Below are positions 40,961-57,897 of a DNA stretch of 64,000 bases, piece by piece. A program made the position numbers and the translations under genes. Under the pieces are notes generated by a model. That model did not search any database, was not told the DNA's origin, and saw only the letters and a program-made list of their open reading frames with translations. The stretch is from NCBI GenBank assembly GCA_000182565.2, contig KQ257453.1; one strand, 5' to 3'. The DNA comes from Spizellomyces punctatus DAOM BR117. Its lineage: Eukaryota. Every line of letters starts with the position of its first letter. The first letter of the stretch is position 1.

Positions 40961-43513
40961 ATGGAGCCGAAACCAATTCTGGGTACCCATTCAGAACCAC
41001 CCTTCTCGCGTCTTGTTGTTGAGGCTGAACGTAACCGAATTCAACCACAGGAACAGCGCCGACTCTTGTAACAAAGATACCTCCATCAGTAAACTTGACG
41101 GGGATCTATTCCGCGACAGGTAGGGTTAAAGTGAGTATCGGTCTCTTGCGGTTTGGGCTACTTTTCTGAACTTCTAACATTGGAAAGGATTTGATCTATT
41201 GGGGATACTCTCCCGCGTGGTTCATCGACCCAACCCTGTGGTAAGATCATTTGTTTTGTTAAATCATCGAGAGGGTGACGAATTCAGCGCTGAGATCGAT
41301 TATTTTTTGGTAGATCGCACTTGGACCTGTTGATCTATCGTGTGCTTTTCTTGTGACGGATCCACGGAGACCGGATAATCCCGTATGTGAAAGCATTTCG
41401 ATTTCGCTCCATGGTGTTAGGGTTGACACTGACGTATCTTTGTGCAGATTGTGTATGCTAGCGAGACATTTTCAAAGTATGTCGTATCAGTGTCGGACAC
41501 TTGTCCAGTACAGATTTTAAACATATTCGTACAGGTTAACAGGATATAGCAACGCTGAGGTGCTAAACCGTAACTGCCGCTTTCTTCAAGGTGGGTTTAG
41601 CACAACCAAAGTAACTCATCGGATGGCTGACATATTTGGGTTGCAGCGCCAGATGGTCAGCAGGAACCGGGCCAAGCTCGCCGTTACACGGACAATGCAG
41701 TTGTCTCGCAGCTGAAGCAGGCTATCGATCGCAATGAGGAATGTCAGTTTACGTTAATTAATTATAAAAAAGGTGGAGAGGTCGGTAGCGACTCTTTGCG
41801 TGAACAAATTTTTGCAAGTCCTCATACTTTTTATGAATCAAGCCTTTCATAAACTTGGTTACGGTCGTTCCTGTGTAAGCAAACGTACAAGACATGTAGT
41901 CTTCTTCTTTCATTAAGCAAGCTGTTGTCACACAGGGAGTATGGTCGACCCGGGGAGGTCAGCTTTTTTGTTGGATTTCAAGTAGACTTGATCGATCAGC
42001 CGCAAGCCATTCTAGATCGGATGAAAGGTATACTAAAAAATATTGTATGAAGTGGTCTCTAGTAGATACCGATGCGGCTTTCCGTCTATGCAGATGGAAC
42101 ATATACCATCAATTATCAGATTGCTGAGCAATTGGACGCCCGACAGCCAGGTAAGTAGTTGACTGGTAGGAGCGAGCCTTTTGGCCATTCACTGACTTGC
42201 GCATATTTAGCTGCCATGTCCGACGTGGCGGCATTCCAGCAGGAGACGTTCCATCTGTTGTCGCCAGTGCAAGCTCCTAAATCACCAGATTACACTCCCT
42301 TACCTGATGCGATCGAGAATCTGGTTGAAGATTTTGATGATTTTGTGCACATCCTGTCTCTCCGTGGGCTTTTTCTTTACGCTGCACCTCGCTCTACAAA
42401 GAGGTTACTGGAATACACTGCCGAAGAGCTAATGGGTCATAGTTTGCACGAGTTTGTGCATCCGGCGGACTTTGTTTCGGTGATGCGCGAGTTACGAACA
42501 AGTGCGTCCACTGATACAATAAATATCATCTGTCGCTTTAGACGAAAGCATTCAGGTTACATGTATTTGGAGATCAATGGACATGTGAGATGAGGCCCAT
42601 TTGGACACGGTGTTTTTATTGGATCTAACTTTGTTTGCCAAAGATATATGACGAAGATAACAACAAACGAACAAAATGTTTCATCATGTCGGGTCGTGAG
42701 AAACAGGTCACGACTCTTCGAGTGAAAAACATTTTATTGCCCGGTCCGGACACGTCCGAAACATGGGCAAAGCTATCGTTAGAGGGATTGATACTCTACG
42801 TATGTCCGAATGCCGTACCCATTTTTGGACTTTATCCCGAAGAGCTTGTCGCAAAGTCACTTGTAGAGTTTTTGCATGACAGCGATCATCAGGCTTGCCG
42901 CGACGCTCTTCAAACCATTGTCAATGGTCAATCTGTTCAAAACCTGCGATGCCGGATAGCCGTCAAGAGAGGATTTTCGTCTGCTGTCCTTCGATTCTAC
43001 GCAGATGGGTGTACCCCGCGAAGCACCATATTCTGTCAAATTAAAGCAGTGGAAGTCGGACGAACCGATCCGCTGGATTTGAAGACGCTAGTCGAATACG
43101 AACCCTTGTACGAGGACGGTAATTTGTTTGATGTCATGAATGAAGTCAGGGCCACTTCATTACATTACGAACTCAATCAGTTACGTCTGCATAATAAGCG
43201 ACTAAGGGAGGAACTTGACAGTATCATTGCCCCAATTAAAAAGAAAACAGTGTGTATGGTTTTTTTTGTCGGACGATATCGTTTTTGTTAATCTTGTTTT
43301 TGTAGAAACCACGAGTTGAGGCGCTCACGCAGTGCGCGCAGTGCCATACCAGTTACAGTCCGGAATGGAGAAAAGGCCCCGACAATCAAAGAAATTTGTG
43401 GTGCGTCCATTATTTGAGGTACGATGTTTGGTTCATGCTCATCGATTGTTTGTAGTAATGCCTGTGGCCTCCGATACGCCAAGGCGATGCGAAATCGAGC
43501 ATCCATAGGATAA
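40961..43513 (+). CDS. wc-1: White Collar-1-type blue-light photoreceptor (LOV-PAS-PAS-GATA), about 13 introns
   Basis: Spliced: 'GIYSATGFDLLGILSRVVHRPNP..LGPVDLSCAFLVTD..PIVYASETF..LTGYSNAEVLNRNCRFLQAPDG..INYKKGGEPFINLVTVVP..FVGFQVDL'; PAS 'DFVHILSLRGLFLY..HPAD'; GATA finger CAQC-x18-CNAC. Confidence 0.93.
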
Positions 43514-46518: not shown

Positions 46519-47660
46519 TTGCTATGGTTTTTTTTTTCGCCAGCTTGCCAGCGGGCCTTTGGTTTTGCTTGGGTGTTTGTCGGCAGCGCCCATTTGCGGG
46601 GGTGTCCCCCCCAAGCCCTCCCGAACAATGTTCACGTGAAAGCCAAACATGTCCAGTTTCAAGACTAAGCCTTTGCAGGGGGTCCGTGGTTCAATCTGCG
46701 CTGGTTTCAATGCTGGAATGTTTTTCTGGTGGTGGCCCATGCAACAAAAGTTTGGGTAAGTCTACGAAACCAGTAAAAATGACGTTTTGTGTGCGGCAAT
46801 TAAAGGGGGGGCTGCTGCGGAATATTTTTTTCCATTTTGGAATCGATCGGAAGAAAAACTCCAACAACACATTTGGATACATAAAGTTCCATATGGGATA
46901 TTCCGTGGCCGAACGCGCGGAGATAATTATTACCAATGGAACTATGTCCCTTTATGACGGAACGGATGAAAGGCGATGACGAAGGGGAAAAACTACGCCA
47001 AGGCCAATACGCCAAGGACGATGTGAACGGGGAATACCCGCCCATCGTATGTTGCAAAAAGGGAATGCAAAAACGTTCTGCCCGCACACATAACCACAAT
47101 CCTAAAAAGGAAAGCGGACGAATATGTGGCTGGGTCAATTCTACGATGGAATGATCCACTGCTTACGTACACGATCGTAATTTTTGTGATTCCCGTTTTC
47201 TTGCAGTAGCCAGCCAATGTGTTGTCAGAGTACTCAGCTGCTGCTTGTGGAATGCTTTGTGGCCAGCAGACAAGATGATGAAAGTGTAATAGTAAGAAAA
47301 GGAGAGATTGAACGGAGAGGGCGGGGTAAAAAACTGTTTGGGGCGGAGAGGAAGGAAGGATACTTTTTGTTGTTGTTGTTGGGCTGGTCTTTTTTTTTCT
47401 TGATTTTTCTTTTACCAAAGCGCTGAGACGTTTTTTTTGTTGGTTGTCGTTTTTGTTTTGCAATTTGGAGGGGGGGGACAAAACGTCAAGATGACTTGTA
47501 GGAATAAAATGCCCCCATGCTTTTATATTTTCCTTGAATTTCCTTCTTGTCCAAAACTGCTTTTGGATATTCTTGATATTTGTTTAATCCTGCTATATAG
47601 ACAAAAGGAGATACTGCAAGCAATAGACAAAGCAAGAGAAAGCACCTCTGAAAACGCGCT

Positions 47661-50600
47661 ATGGACAGTGGGGAGCGAGCGTATGGAGAGCACATCGCCG
47701 CCAAGCTAGTGTTTTCATCCTTGGTGGATCTCCTATCCTCTGCCTCGCGCCCTGCCATCTTGGCCTCTGATGCGCGATCCCCGCTATCCCATGCAGACCT
47801 GCGTTCCTTTATCCAGCAATTCGACCTCCAAACGTTTGGACTTGGACGGAATGATAGAATTGGCGTCATCCTTCCAGAAGGACCAGAGCTCGGAGTCTGT
47901 TTGACGTGCGTCCTGGCACGGGCAACTGCCGTCCCGCTCAACGAAAAGGAAATTGAGGAAGAGATTGTGTCAGAGTTGGAGCAAATGCGCGCAAAAGCTG
48001 CCATTGTCTGCAAGTCACGGTCGCAGGTATGCAATTGGAAAAAGAAAAACTGGGCTTGAGCGAGGGCATGCGCAGCAAACAAATTCATATCTTCTTGTTT
48101 CTTGTTTTTAGGATCGCATCGTGTCGCTGCTTGCTTCGGCCGGCTTTCTCGTTTTGCTTTTGGAGCCAAGCCCTTCCATTGCTGGTCTGTTTACCCTTTC
48201 CGCCGCGCCCGGTCCAGTCATCATCTCCCCATCCCCACCTATGGTCCAGCCTTACACACGTCCGGATGATTGCGCCTTGGTGCTTCGTACATCAGGAACA
48301 TCGGGCAACAAAAAGACAGTTCCGTACACGCTACGTACACTCTGCATAGGCGCGATATGCGTCGCAAAGTCATGGGCACTTCAGGAAAACGATGTCAACT
48401 TGAACATGATGCCCCTCTACCATGTCGGTGGAATTGTTCGAAACCTGCTTTCTCCACTCCTCAGCGGTGGAGCAGTCATCACTTGCAAGGGATTTGATCC
48501 TGCAATGTTTTGGGACATTGTGGAGGCCTCTCCCATATCGCCAACGTGGTACTACGCAGTGCCAACAATGCACCATGCTATTCTTCAGGAAGGTCGGGAG
48601 CGATATAGTGGCCGTTCCCCTGCCACGATACGCATGATTTGCAACGCTGGAGGAGGACTTCAACCATCGCTTGCCGTCGAGTTGCGCAATTACTTTATTG
48701 GGGCCGTTGTACTGCCGTCATATGGAATGACAGAATGCATGCCAATCACTACACCTCCCCAGGACTATGCGCTGGATAGACCAGGAACTTCAGGAAAGTC
48801 GGTTGGACCAGAGATTGCCATATTCAATGCAAGCATGGACGTTGAGCAGCCACCCAGAGTGATTGGCAACATTTGTGTGCGCGGAGAGCCCCTTTTCGGT
48901 GGTTATGAGGGAAACCAAGCCGCAAATGACAAAGCTTTCAACAGTGCTGGCTGGTTTGACACGGGAGACATGGGATACCTTGATGAAGATGGCTACTTGT
49001 ATATTACTGGCCGCTCCAAAGAAGTCATCAACCGCGGTGGTGAAATCATTTCCCCTGTAGATGTAGAATCCGCTGTCCTAGAGCACCCTAGAATAAGGAA
49101 TGCGCTTGCATTCTCTGTTCCTCACAATATTCTACAAGAGACGATTGGGATTGTGGTCGTACCAGAATCTGGTAGCACGCTCGTGGACATTGCAGAGCTA
49201 CACAGGTGTGTATTCTCGACTATGTATTGTGATGGTAAAACTCTAAGCTTCTTGAATGATTAGATTCCTGGCCGAATCATTGCACCCCTCAAAATGGCCC
49301 CAGGTCCTTGTGTACATGGACGATCTTCCAAAGAACATGAACAACAAGCCTCTGCGTATTAACCTCGCCAAACGGTTGGGAATTCCAGAGTTGCAAGACG
49401 GGACTTCACAATTTAGCCGCATGTATGAAGCAGTGGCACCACCCCGGACTGCATCTCTCTCTGAGCCGATTCCCGCTCAACGTATCAAACCCAACGGATC
49501 AAAACTAATCCATTATTTACTTCGCCACGACGGAGTTGCAGATGCCGTGGCACTCACAGGATTTAGTAAATCGGATCCAGAGGCGTTGGTGGCATTTGTC
49601 GCTACTTGGTCATCACACAATTTGCGATCCGATACTCTTTACGAGTACCTGGACACGCAAGGTCGGATTCACGATTATGAGCGACCTAGGGAAATCATTC
49701 TTTTGTCGCAGCTGCCACGTCGCCACGACGGAAGTCTGGATGTTGATGCTCTTTCTACTCGCTTTGCTGAAGTATCGGCCAGCTCTGAGGACATGTCGCG
49801 TCTTGAAAAGGGCATTGGGAATCTCTTTGTCGATGTCCTTAATGTTCCGGAAGTTACGAGCCGTGATGCCGACTTTTTCGAGCTTGGTGGAGATTCTCTT
49901 AAGGCTGGACGCCTTGTACATATGATAAGGTGAGTTCTTGTGAAGTTCTATAGATTTGGTTTCGTCTGTATGATCGAAAAATTGACGGGAAGAATAATTT
50001 AGAAAACGTCTTGACGTCAATATCCCTGCGTCCAACATTCTACGGTATCGGTCGGTGGCTTCGCTCGCCTCGACTATTGCCGAAAGACTTCCGCCGGATA
50101 GTCCGTGGCTCCGATCCGAATCCGTCATTTCCTCCTCTGCCAGTGACCTAAGCGGCTCAACCGCTCATGACTCTGGAGATGAGTCTGATGATGTTCCTCG
50201 CCCGAAAAGCAGTGCCAAGAGCCCGCTCTCTATTTCTGCACTATTTATCCAATTACTCTCCATTTTGATCTTGCGTCCTTTACGGATCACCTGCAGGTGG
50301 ATCTTTTTTGCCTACGTGCTCATTTGGACGCATCCGTGGTTTCGGTTGGGAGGAACCATGGACACTTCGTGGTTGCATCCCGTGCAGTTGATGCTGGCGC
50401 TGGTGATTGCTCAGGTTGTGCTGTGGGTTTTCCTCCCCATTTTGGGAATTGCTCTCAAGTGGTTGGTGATTGGAAGGTACAAGGCTGGAAGGTATGCTTT
50501 TTTGTGCTGGTGCAAATGTTTTATATTTTGCTGCAAAGTCTAATCTCACTTGTTCCTTCTTGTTAAGCTATCCCCTGTGGGGCTCCTACTACCTCCGATG

Positions 50601-52773
50601 GTGGTTTGTGGATCAAGCTTTGCACTTGTGTGGGAGGGGATTCTTTGCACTCAACAATGCAACAATGCGATGGTATCTCCGCTGTATGGGAGCTCGCGTA
50701 GGTGCAAACAGCCAAATTGACCTCAAAACGAATTTTGGCGAATACGATTTGATTCAAATTGGGGAAAACTGTGGCTTTGAAAGCGCTCGAGTCCGTCCAT
50801 TTACGATGCAAACAGGTCGAATGGTGCTGGGACCTATCGTGATTGGACACAATTCTGTTGTGAACATCAAGACCACTATTGCCCCGGGTGCTATGGTCCC
50901 AAACAACACAGTCTTTCCTCCTCTCTCTTCTTCGTACGAAATGGACGATGCATCTGAAGAGTACCGAGGACTGTGTCGCACGACGGGCCCAACAGGTCCA
51001 CATCTTATCGTACAGCTTCTTCTTGGCTGGCCAGTTATTTTTATCGTGAATTTATTCGGAATGATCCCTTGGTTAGGTGTTATTTACTTGATGAGCGCGC
51101 AGAAATTTTTTATCCGCGCTACGTCGGCGTTCGCGTTTGGAGACGTTCTACACTATTTTGCAGCCCCGGCAAGGATAGGGTACCATGTCCTCGCTATAAT
51201 TATGCGGGACACGATCAGCCCGTTCTTGTACCTTGCCGCATGTATCCTAATTAAACGTCTTGTCATTGGGAAATTCAAGGCAGGCCCGCGAGACCTGTCC
51301 CAGATGGGTCTTTTACGGTACTGGTTGATGCAAAAGTTGTTGGGAGACGGAACACTGGGAGGAGTGAACGCGCTGCTTGGATCGCACTATGAATTCACAA
51401 GCATGATCTACCGGGCGCTGGGCGCTAAAATTGGCAAACGCATCTACTGGCCAGGAACCGGCTTATTCGTTTTCGAGCACGATTTGATGGAAGTCGGCGA
51501 CGATGTCGTATTTGGATCTCGGTCGTTCCTTGTCTGTTCAGACCAATCCGAGAGTGCTCCAATCAAGATTGGTGCGGGGGCCATGATTGCGGATCGATGC
51601 GTACTGCTCCCGGGAGCCACCATTGGACGGAACGCCATCATGGGTTCAGGAGGGTTGGCCCGGAAAGGGACTCACTATCCTGCTGGATCCATTTGGTTGG
51701 GCTCGGCGAATGGTGGTGCCACGTTATGGGATATGGGGAATGAACGCGAGGCGGAAAAGGCCCCGACAGACACACCCTTTGGAAAAGCGTTTTACGAAAA
51801 GAAGGCTTCCTTCACCGTCCTACCCATGTGGTTTTGCGCCGGATACAATATTGCTATCTCGGTATTCACGTCGACATACTGGTCCCTACCCGTGCTTGCC
51901 GCCATTCAGGTTGGCAATCTCTTTTACGTGACTGGAAAGCACCCCAAATTGTTTGATCAGATTAGCCCAACCTGGGTGGCTATCAGCACGTATTGCGCCA
52001 TGTTCCTGACAGTATCTGTTGCGTTCACTATTCTTGCATTCGGCGCTTTGGGGATTGAGATTGCGGCCAAATGGTCACTCTTTGGACGTCGTGCAGTTGG
52101 AAAGTACAACTGGGATGAATCGTCCTACTGCCAAAGATGGCAAGTGTATATCGCGATGCTTCGAGTTCGCCGCGATATTCTCGACTACATTCGCGGGTCT
52201 TGGTACATTGTACAGTTTTTCCGATTCCTGGGCTGTCGCATTGGAAAACGTGTTTGCTTGTATCCTACAGGCGGTGATCCAATGATGACAGAGCCAGATC
52301 TCATCACCATTGGTGATGATGCTGCGGTGGACAATGCTTCCGTTGTCTGCCATCTAAACAGCAAGGGTCAGTTTTCGCTGAACCCGCTCGTGATTGGTGC
52401 TGGCTCTATTTTGCGGTCCAACTCTCGTTTACTCTCGGGTGCGCACATGGAGGAAGACGCGACCCTTTTGGAGCATACTTTAATTGTGTCGGGGGATGTG
52501 GTAGAAAGTCATTCGGTGTGTCAAGGTTGGCCTTCTATGGATGTCACAAATGAACGCTCTCGCGCTTTTGCTCAATATGGGAGCGTCAGAAAGAGGAAGC
52601 CAAAGTGGAGACGCAAGATTCGGGGCTTCTTTGGCGTTTTCCGATCCAAGAACTCTCACAACAAACTCACGGATGCGGCTCCATTGGTTTTGGCAAACAC
52701 TGGAAGGTGGACACCTCCTGCCGACGAGTCTGGAAAAGATACGGATAATATGCATAGTACATTATCTGTTTAA
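47661..52773 (+). CDS. NRPS-like membrane synthetase: A (acyl-CoA-ligase type) - extra A-subdomain - T - Pls/PosA-type terminal domain; about 1606 aa, 5 exons
   Basis: Exons 47661-48026, 48112-49205, 49264-49929, 50003-50491 and 50568-52773 splice in frame. Motifs TSGTSGNKK, PLYHVGG, SYGMTE, TGDMG, GRSKEVINRGGE; carrier 'DFFELGGDSL'; three repeats of a TM pair + 'K.LVIG' + 'LGA.IG' hexapeptide region. Confidence 0.9.
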
Positions 52774-55609: not shown

Positions 55610-57897
55610 CTAGTAGGTGCCAAAATAGCGATCGCCAAAGTTTCCAAATCCTGGAACAACATGTCCTTGATCATCCAGCTCCTGGTCAACTTCCGCTGTC
55701 ACTACCCTAACGCTAGGGAAGGCATTGGCTATCGTATGCAACCCGAGCGGCGCGGCAATAAGCGACAGAAAGATGATGCGATCCTGTGGAACATCGTGGT
55801 CCAAAATCACTCGAATTGCCATCAGCGCGGCAGCGCCTGGTTGAAATAAATGAAATGGTTAAAGTTGCAAATGAACTCGAAAGTTTGATGGAAGAAAAAA
55901 TAACAATGGTCTCACCCGTGGCGATTTGGGCGTCACTGATCAATACATATCGCTGACTGATATCCGACGGCAATTTACAATAGTGTAATTGCGGCTCACC
56001 CGTGCTGGGATCTGTCTGTATGAGGATCTTGCCTATTGGAATGTCCTTGACCACGCTTCGCAACCCCCTTTCCATCGTTGCTCCTGAGCGAATGACTGAC
56101 ACCCCACAAACCTTTGAGAGAAAATACTGCAGGTTAGCTAGCCCGCTAGGTGAATGTACTGGGTTCATGACAGCACCTGCTCTTTCCATATGACACCCTT
56201 GTAGATGCTTCCGATGGGCGTTATGACATCCGCGTTACCAAACGGTAGTTCAGCAAGACCCCTATCACCAAGATTAAGTATCACATCTGCCGATCAATAG
56301 TCCAATGAGACTCTAACCGTTCAACGATGATTCTGGATAATCGCTCCGCATAAAAGATAAAGTCATGTCTGCTTGTCGTCCGGTCTCTTATAATGGTCAA
56401 CAGCGCCTTGAGCTCATTTGTGGGCTTTAACGTGCGTAAAATCGACGGTAACTCCTTCTTGACATTGATGTTCGATAACGCGACCTTGAGGGAGAGTCCT
56501 CGATCATTTAGCTGTCTAGCCAAATGCTTTGTGATCACATCAATTGCAGCTGTTGCTAAGCGGTGAGCGGTTTTCTTGAAAGATATGGGGGATGTAATGC
56601 ACATACCAACGTTGTCCAACCCACGAGGAATGATGACTATATCAATGACCAAAGGTCAGAATGATGATCCGCCAAAGAGAGGCTAGCCCAAAGCGAGATC
56701 TTACCATCAGCGTATTTCATGGTTGGGTATATATGCTCATCAAAAGCAGGTTTTACAAATTTCCGATATTGGTCTAAAACACCTCGGATATCTCGCCCTC
56801 GCTCTGCAATGTCTCGTTTCACTATGAGAGAGTGTCATGTCAGTTGCACTTTATTTCATGAGCAACATATCCCAAAGCTCATCATACGTCGTCTTGCGAG
56901 TCGAATGTCTGCATCGGTGTCTACAAAGATCTTGAGATCCATAAGGTCTCTAACTGATTTATCATACAGAGCAAAGATGCCCTCAAAGACCACCACATTG
57001 GCTCCGTAAACGGTTTGCGACTTGTCGAGGCTAGAATAAACGCATTAGTTCCAAACGACAAACATGAGTTCAAAGTGGAATCTCGGAGTCACCACGAACC
57101 GATTATGTGTCGCGAAATCATAGATCGGAACGTCGACTTTGATGCTATACATTAGAAGAGGATTATTACTCGCTATCACAGAAGCTTCCATGCAAAGAGG
57201 AACAATCCAACGATGTTTACCCTTTCTTTAGGTTGAGAAGCGTCTGATGCAGTGCTTCGTAGTCGAAAGCATCTGGGATAGAGCGAGTTCAACGGTTCAT
57301 GGAACACATTCCACCTAACACAGTCTTCCAGATCAAACGTAGCGGCTTACTGGGATGATCAAAATCATATTCACTATAAGGGGAATATGAGATGGGGCGA
57401 ATAAAGTTACGTTCAATCAATACATTTGATATAGTCAACGTAAACAAACATTATCAGCTACTCACTTTCTGTGTGCGGCAGCAACTTGTTCGGGAGTCAA
57501 CGGTTTATAGAAAGAATCCATAGATAACAGAATGACCTAAATTCAACAACAGCACGCTGCATGAGAACTGCACACGTCGACGGGAACAATGTGGAAGCCG
57601 CATAGCCAGGAGGCGATTTCGGCATACTGACCCAAGGAACCCCCAGACTTCGAATAATCCTTGTAGACACGCTGGTTTTTCCGCTCGCACTTCCTCCCGC
57701 CATACCAATAATGAATGGTTCGACTGGCTTTCCGTCGATATTGTACCTGTTCACAAGAACTGGCAACTATAACCAAACAATAGACAATTCCAAACTCGAA
57801 GCAATGCATTCGTTACACACCATGGAAATCTGCCAGCCGAGAGGAAGGTGCTCATCTTCCTCTGAATGCTACGCGGAGCATTCTGAACGTTCGACAT
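55610..57897 (-). CDS. URK1: Uridine-cytidine kinase with C-terminal UPRTase-like domain
   Basis: '[21 protein letters not shown]', 'LSMDSFYK', 'YDFDHPNAFD', 'RDIAERGRD', 'IIPRGLDN', 'IGKILIQT', '[13 protein letters not shown]'. Confidence 0.93.

Follow-up and report, generated by a model that had tools for sequence, protein, structure and literature searches.

A candidate membrane-bound polymalate synthetase in the chytrid Spizellomyces punctatus and its widespread family

What does a chytrid make with a gene that appears to join an acid-activating domain to a polymerase-like membrane domain? The gene, SPPG_02647, occupies positions 47661–52773 (+) of a 64,000-nucleotide stretch of Spizellomyces punctatus DAOM BR117 contig KQ257453.1 (the window). 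An initial annotation of the window had proposed that it polymerizes a hydroxy or dicarboxylic acid, giving either polymalate, a biodegradable polyester of malic acid, or a novel polyester. A carboxylic-acid-type adenylation domain set on a Pls-like polymerase is what we find, with polymalate as the best product; the novel-polyester branch of the proposal is not supported. SPPG_02647 is probably a membrane-bound poly(β-L-malate) synthetase, the chytrid ortholog of the polymalate (PMA) synthetase of Aureobasidium, and its family is widespread and mostly unannotated.

One gene with an adenylation half and a membrane half

Removal of four GT-AG introns (85, 58, 73 and 76 nt) from the plus-strand stretch, over which five overlapping open reading frames (ORFs) run from 47652 to 52773, gave a product of 1606 aa with no internal stop. 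Because this spliced product is identical to the S. punctatus protein SPPG_02647 (P0265) at 1606 of 1606 residues, the half carrying the adenylation (A) and carrier (T) domains and the membrane half are one predicted gene. A protein of S. 'palustris' has equal length and is 94% identical.

The predicted protein begins with an A domain of acyl-coenzyme A (CoA) ligase type, followed by a second A-subdomain, the carrier and three units that each combine a membrane hairpin with a β-helix. Pfam matched AMP-binding (9e-47), AMP-binding_C, PP-binding (8e-14) and Hexapep; when exons were scanned separately, AMP-binding_C matched twice, with one match ending at K515 and another in exon 3. Motifs along the protein are PLYHVGG (aa 223), GGDSL (695), KWLVIG (861, whose stretch on to YLRWW spans intron 4), KRLVIG (1101), KWSLFG (1373) and TEPDLITIGDD (1446). 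The initial annotation had read an A domain, a GGDSL carrier and three tandem membrane units, with no canonical condensation (C) or thioesterase (TE) domain. Splicing, Pfam, profiles and a structural model bear out this order, and the Pfam scan of the protein lists no condensation or thioesterase family at E ≤ 0.001. The second A-subdomain (~563–655) is an addition to that first reading.

An AlphaFold2 model of residues 420–1539, built from a 61-row alignment, had a mean predicted local distance difference test score (pLDDT) of 91 and a predicted template modelling score (pTM) of 0.82. In it, two A-subdomains built from elements in matching order precede a carrier bundle, and three times over a pair of long helices leads into a region of repeated strands. 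Profile comparison among the three membrane units gave matches for 6 of 6 cross pairs (31.7–67.2 bits). The predicted membrane half agrees with the published model of PosA, in which six membrane helices carry three packed left-handed β-helices (PMC10522769). Foldseek connected the first A-subdomain with oxalyl-CoA synthetases, and the second A-subdomain plus carrier with nonribosomal peptide synthetase (NRPS) modules; a VIA second look re-found only the A-subdomain and carrier. No solved structure covering the membrane domain was among the Foldseek matches listed or in the sequence search. A single-sequence model of exon 2 (pLDDT 32) was discarded.

An A–T pair followed by three helix-pair/β-helix units, with neither C nor TE domain, is the layout of Pls, PosA and Epls, and SPPG_02647 could on that account be read as a poly-amino-acid synthetase. 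TIGR02353 matches it (E 2.5e-62), and the membrane domain is homologous. The score, however, is 211.2 bits where the cut-off is 423.1; 186–220 bits were obtained for seven other family proteins, and the three Pls/PosA controls scanned all scored far higher (725, 615 and 773). Because the score lies below the curated cut-off, the family is, by profile, a sister of Pls/PosA outside TIGR02353 membership. Thus, of the Pls-type architecture named initially, the three-unit layout stands and membership in Pls/PosA does not; in the profile search suggested with it, AMP-binding and PP-binding matched outright and TIGR02353 below its cut-off. Half the cut-off score, a long branch from Pls, an A core unrelated to that of Pls at family level, and YH (225–226) in place of the Pls FD motif (4 listed of 5 aligned) with its amino-acid-type aspartate make a poly-amino-acid product scarcely credible.

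The two groups nevertheless have K–W, R–W–W, T-E-x-D and His motifs in common. H1467 occurs in every aligned row, 49/49 for the family and 5/5 for Pls, and the same holds for T1446, E1447, K1373, W1396 and W876; the query thus presumably operates in the manner of Pls. They differ in the A domain, which is of amino-acid type in Pls/PosA/Epls and of acyl-CoA-ligase type, with an extra and apparently dead A-subdomain, in the query's family; in length (~1330 aa for Pls, ~1600 aa here); and in the sequence at the histidine (H-x-F/Y-E-D in Pls, H-x-N-S-R here). A global charge swap between family and Pls membrane domains was considered and rejected (family-specific positions: 10 basic, 8 acidic; Pls-specific: 11 acidic, 16 basic); a swap is seen only locally, beside H1467 and at R1190 (5 Pls rows). 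Fungal Epls are described as forming their own group, of narrow distribution and 51% identical to Streptomyces Pls (PMC7179176). Eukaryotic homologs are noted in the PosA paper, where their substrates are given as unknown and malate is not named (PMC10522769).

Two Azospirillum plasmids (L001:6340-7965, L006:5817-7454) carry a Pls/PosA gene with a fumarate hydratase gene directly after it, probably synteny confined to one genus. We rejected these as malate enzymes, as the TIGR02353 score and FD motif mark them as true Pls.

Substrate pocket and likely product

The closest solved sequences to the A domain are the oxalate-CoA ligases 6qjz, 5ie0 and 8aff (E 1e-56 to 1e-71), in keeping with the initial description of an A4 motif PLYHVGG in an oxalate/acyl-CoA-ligase-like core. 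Such matches, and the naming of some family records, would fit an oxalate-CoA ligase, as many database annotations have it, or an oxalyl-transferring enzyme. In AtAAE3 the oxalate pocket is reported to comprise V215-H216, C288-S289, A313-M314, H319 and K500; of these, S289 and H319 are found specifically in oxalate ligases (PMC8905533). By hand count along the alignment, Ser289, His319 and His216 correspond to G302, P333 and G228 of the query; both oxalate-specific residues of the AAE3/Pcs60 ligases are thus replaced, and close to these positions the query has an arginine (R232) and an asparagine (N300). H226, G228, G229, R232, P273, N300, C331, P333, K515 and S698 are kept in all 83 aligned family members, which are our own selection from the family search and cluster proteins. 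The family A domain therefore differs from its nearest solved relatives (AAE3/Pcs60/LsOCS) by an extra invariant Arg and Asn and by Gly/Pro/Gly for Ser289/His319/His216. Moreover, AAE3 and Pcs60 are stand-alone proteins of ~520 aa, whereas the query A domain is fused to carrier and membrane domains in a 1606-aa frame. With the carrier serine invariant (83/83) and oxalate offering no hydroxyl for polymerization, as established chemistry has it, an oxalate enzyme is very improbable, and oxalate, one of the substrates initially suggested for assay, is an unlikely one. The wider pocket and added basic residue would suit a C4 dicarboxylate.

The same pocket is found in Aureobasidium. Over 23 pocket and catalytic positions of our choosing, the query is identical to the A. 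melanogenum protein P0253 (KAG9518713.1) at 22, including the A10 lysine and carrier serine (K515 and S698, each 83/83). The two proteins are co-linear end to end (39% identity over 1618 columns), the A core is 57% identical to that of Aureobasidium, and trees and alignment place the query as an ortholog of the Aureobasidium A–T–membrane proteins (~1690 aa). The A. melanogenum matches are 1688 aa long; Aureobasidium members span 1685–1690 aa, with coding sequences of 5058–5073 bp. Wang et al. 2020 is reportedly the primary PMA synthetase paper, and homologs may already be discussed there.

According to reviews, the Aureobasidium PMA synthetase is encoded by a 5049-bp gene, combines A-like, T and C-like domains with six membrane segments, lacks a thioesterase and works through malyl-AMP and malyl-S-enzyme to esters; its deletion is said to remove the gene's function and leave growth unaffected (PMC11286673, PMC9210645). 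By these descriptions it resembles SPPG_02647 in domain order ending in a C-like membrane part, in its six membrane segments, in lacking a thioesterase and in its size of ~5 kb; the query differs in its chytrid host, its four introns and ~100 fewer N-terminal residues. The enzyme (QHD40385.1) has been filed as 'NRPS-like', apart from a NAPAA cluster (PMC11905612), a filing that fits a sub-threshold TIGR02353 score. Region sizes from antiSMASH in the supplement of that study gave no exact length match and depend on neighbourhood rules and a contig-number offset; they were set aside. Judged by size and architecture, an indirect link, the 1685–1690-aa Aureobasidium proteins are very probably the published PMA synthetase, and it is quite likely that its function transfers to the chytrid protein.

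As a polymalate synthetase, SPPG_02647 would work as follows. The A domain would convert L-malate and ATP to malyl-AMP. K515 would be the catalytic residue, and R232/N300 would bind the far carboxylate or the hydroxyl, in a pocket wider than that of oxalate ligases. The malyl group would be loaded onto phosphopantetheinyl-S698 and not released as a CoA ester. The three β-helices, forming a pseudo-trimer on six membrane helices, would join successive malyl units by ester bonds, probably through catalysis by H1467 paired with E1447. Without a thioesterase, chain release would be stochastic, either at the membrane or through it.

The same chemistry on another hydroxy or dicarboxylic acid would give an undescribed polyester, in the chytrid or in the family outside Dothideales. 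The query departs from the Aureobasidium protein at over 60% of residues, family paralogs are retained in several chytrids and Mucorales, and polymalate is known from few lineages. The pocket, however, is nearly invariant across the 83 members, 78 of which differ from P0253 at no more than two of the 23 positions, and the sole difference in the query, G302 for A, is a state found in 25 of 83. We consider another monomer rather unlikely.

Two further members bear on the product. Physarum is a known polymalate producer in which malyl-AMP activation has been described and lysis abolishes polymerase but not ligase activity; a 2022 review reports its polymalate synthetase as not identified, with recombinant production awaiting a characterized enzyme (PMC9210645). 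The Physarum member P0043 is 42% identical to the query over 1379 residues and matches P0253 at 22 of the 23 pocket positions, making it by sequence a direct candidate for that synthetase. In Verticillium dahliae, a 2026 study describes Ann3, a single-exon A–T–membrane protein of 1693 aa (PF00501 at 128–482, PF00550 at 777–842) with unknown product, 171-fold lower in SXM than in minimal medium (PMC13065033). The V. dahliae member P0457 has exactly this length and these Pfam coordinates, and Verticillium has all 23 pocket positions in common with P0253. On length and domain coordinates rather than sequence, Ann3 matches P0457. Neither 'poly' nor 'malic' occurs in the main text of the Ann3 paper (PMC13065033).

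A further alternative is a malyl or acyl transferase that passes on a single acid unit or a short oligomer, with a membrane lipid, a wall polysaccharide or a small molecule as acceptor and with its β-helix acting like that of a hexapeptide O-acyltransferase. Weak matches to hexapeptide acetyltransferases are consistent with this, as are the reports that fungal polymalate is embedded in membranes and possibly polysaccharide-bound (PMC9210645) and that the Verticillium ANN candidates are small molecules (PMC13065033). Pls polymerases, however, have the three-unit membrane domain, T-E-x-D and the H residue as well, and the Verticillium extraction used ethyl acetate (PMC13065033), which would be expected to miss a polyanion. 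We regard a transferase as improbable.

Several points weigh against a polymalate synthetase. The function is a prediction from sequence and modelled structure, and polymalate has been reported from few organisms while the family is widespread. The membrane units are 36–43% identical to those of Aureobasidium. QHD40385.1 was compared by published descriptions only and is not among the cluster members listed (15 of 126 and 15 of 52); its 5049 bp (1682 aa) match no listed Aureobasidium length (1685–1690 aa). Two reviews place the six membrane segments N-terminally (PMC11286673, PMC9210645), whereas those of the family lie in the C-terminal half and the N-terminus of P0253 has one marginal hydrophobic window. 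The Verticillium ortholog has been tied, indirectly and through regulator mutants, to small molecules and antibacterial activity (PMC13065033). Finally, no malate-pathway or phosphopantetheinyl transferase gene was found among the 23 neighbouring ORFs scanned.

Origin and spread of the family

Profiles from the 83-row alignment were run on five Pls and one oxalate-CoA-ligase-like protein of Methylobacterium, whose best solved matches are oxalate-CoA ligases. The A-core profile scored 220 bits on the ligase-like protein and 10–19 on the five Pls, and the first A-subdomain profile 97 bits versus at most 9. The second A-subdomain profile scored 47.5, 43.7, 40.2, 37.1 and 31.1 on the five Pls and 31.4 on the ligase-like protein, and tblastn joined residues 619–1528 to two Pls genes as a single piece. 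The Pls G-K-x-D lysine is kept at the corresponding column of the second A-subdomain in 1 of 83 rows, identity between members there is 17–22%, and 5 of the 57 family rows, a viral member among them, lack the subdomain (gap <80 aa). The enzyme thus looks like a chimera in which an oxalate-CoA-ligase-type A domain was set before a Pls chassis. The second A-subdomain is likely a catalytically dead spacer, the relic of an amino-acid A domain displaced from a Pls-like ancestor; because its margin of Pls over ligase is modest, an old duplication is an alternative.

Of 5373 candidates in a search with exon 5, 1071 proteins matched at E ≤ 0.001. Among the best 120 of these, the same domain set occurs in chytrids, Mucoromycota, Basidiomycota, Ascomycota, Physarum polycephalum, Coccomyxa, Guillardia, a pelagophyte and the gnat Bradysia, and cluster listings add cercozoan, chrysophyte, euglenozoan and dinoflagellate members. 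The family A core is carried by 41 of 42 listed representatives of at least 1200 aa, with no other A type seen among them. The rarity implied by the initial annotation therefore gives way to orthology within a family that spans fungi and protists, and the pocket hardly differs from the one in the Aureobasidium proteins. Its statement that no such polymer is described from zoosporic fungi agrees with our searches of open-access papers for polymalate in chytrids; nor did open-access text yield a paper describing the distribution of the family or of polymalate synthetase outside Aureobasidium.

Trees were computed in quick mode (LG+G4, with the SH-like approximate likelihood ratio test, SH-aLRT, as sole support) for the T plus membrane domain (54 rows) and the A domain (50 rows). 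In both, 11 chytrid proteins including the query grouped together (99, 95) and then joined Mucoromycota (99). Ascomycota and Basidiomycota formed clades (99–100), Dikarya were recovered (100 and 89) and Aureobasidium lay within Ascomycota; protists were unplaced at the base, and the root branch was long. The phylogeny proposed initially thus puts the query with chytrids and Mucoromycota, in one family with Aureobasidium and a long branch away from Pls. Because the separate A and T plus membrane trees agree with fungal phylogeny, A domain and membrane half are, on tree evidence, one unit vertically inherited in fungi.

Some members depart from this pattern. P0147 and P0148 (Geranomyces) and P0156 and P0183 (Thoreauomyces) nest in Pezizomycotina in both trees, and grouping all 14 chytrid rows together was rejected (approximately unbiased test, p-AU 7e-65, run after the tree had been seen). 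These members, carried by several strains of the two genera, probably reflect transfer from an ascomycete. P0032 of Bradysia coprophila, on a 13-Mb contig, has pocket, lysine and carrier serine intact and nests in Mucorales in both trees; it is a candidate fungus-to-gnat transfer. Many Agaricomycete members (P0048, P0056, P0067 and others) carry additional precomputed Pfam domains such as PF00097 and PF13639, which we take to be RING-type zinc-finger families.

In bacteria, a single-protein scan of GTDB gave no match. An alignment scan, a low-sensitivity test, gave two Planctomycetota metagenome-assembled genome (MAG) loci among 169 pattern matches, one of them adjoining a secretin gene, and one giant-virus MAG locus. 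In a third tree (12 near-duplicate rows dropped, 19 added), a Myxococcota MAG protein was sister to the planctomycete member. These bacterial members (L007:2501-7267, L008 and P0315) are intronless and form one clade with two environmental proteins. The viral member (L009:2768-6754) has 1328 aa, lacks the relic A-subdomain and lies between a MutS-like gene and unannotated genes.

Coordinates, surroundings and implications

Table 1. Features of SPPG_02647 in the window (positions in nucleotides of the window; residues of the predicted protein as aa)
Feature	Position	Strand	Basis
Whole gene, 5 exons	47661-48026, 48112-49205, 49264-49929, 50003-50491, 50568-52773	+	splicing; identity to P0265
A-domain core, oxalate-CoA-ligase (AAE3/Pcs60) type, ~aa 15-424, intron 1 inside	47703..49017	+	Pfam, solved matches, profiles
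A4 motif PLYHVGG and family-invariant Arg232	48412..48441	+	H226, G228, G229, R232 in 83/83
First A-subdomain, aa 425-530, predicted catalytic A10 lysine K515 (49346-49348), intron 2 inside	49018..49393	+	Pfam, profiles, Foldseek
Second, degenerate A-subdomain, aa 563-655, without A10 lysine	49490..49768	+	exon scan, profiles, model
Carrier (T) domain, aa 665-740, phosphopantetheine serine S698 (49895-49897), intron 3 inside	49796..50096	+	Pfam, alignment
Membrane unit 1, helix pair and left-handed β-helix, aa 782-1010, intron 4 inside	50220..50982	+	model, profiles
Membrane unit 2, aa 1011-1265, family-invariant R1074, R1190, D1214	50983..51747	+	model, profiles, alignment
Membrane unit 3, aa 1270-1530	51760..52542	+	model, profiles
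TEPD...H1467-x-N motif, candidate catalytic site; T1446, E1447, D1449, H1467 common to Pls/PosA	52288..52359	+	alignment

The C-terminal tail carries a basic run, RKRKPKWRRKIR (window 52590–52620), which lies outside the conserved region of the family, is also present in the S. 'palustris' protein and could be a targeting or membrane-binding signal. No gene cluster around SPPG_02647 is evident among the 23 ORFs scanned; neighbours are of housekeeping type (Nup188, importin, a PAS protein, histidine phosphatase, uracil phosphoribosyltransferase and methyltransferase). Two genes upstream, a multi-exon gene with two PAS-type domains (41100–43300, +) may encode a regulator related to light or sensing. 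Fragments of a uridine kinase/uracil phosphoribosyltransferase gene at 55610–57800 (−) are ordinary.

The PMA synthetase kind of enzyme is already known, and the chytrid gene alone is one more ortholog; the interest lies at the level of the family. The evidence is evenly balanced on whether polymalate synthesis is an ancient and overlooked eukaryote-wide trait, due to one chimeric family that is found among fungi (chytrids, Mucoromycota, mushrooms and ascomycetes), in Physarum and in algae and other protists, and that has also reached a fungus gnat, Planctomycetota/Myxococcota bacteria and a giant virus. If so, Phypoly_transcript_00199 would be the missing Physarum synthetase, Verticillium Ann3 would be reassigned, giving a testable product for a gene published without one, and hundreds of 'acyl-CoA synthetase' annotations would call for relabelling. 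Most fungal phyla and several protist lineages would also be expected to make an anionic polyester that has so far gone undetected. Besides the Physarum candidate, the family offers many natural variants, including shorter ones without the relic subdomain, and would show how a polyamide synthetase chassis was turned to ester chemistry through a swap of A domains, with the old subdomain still recognizable.

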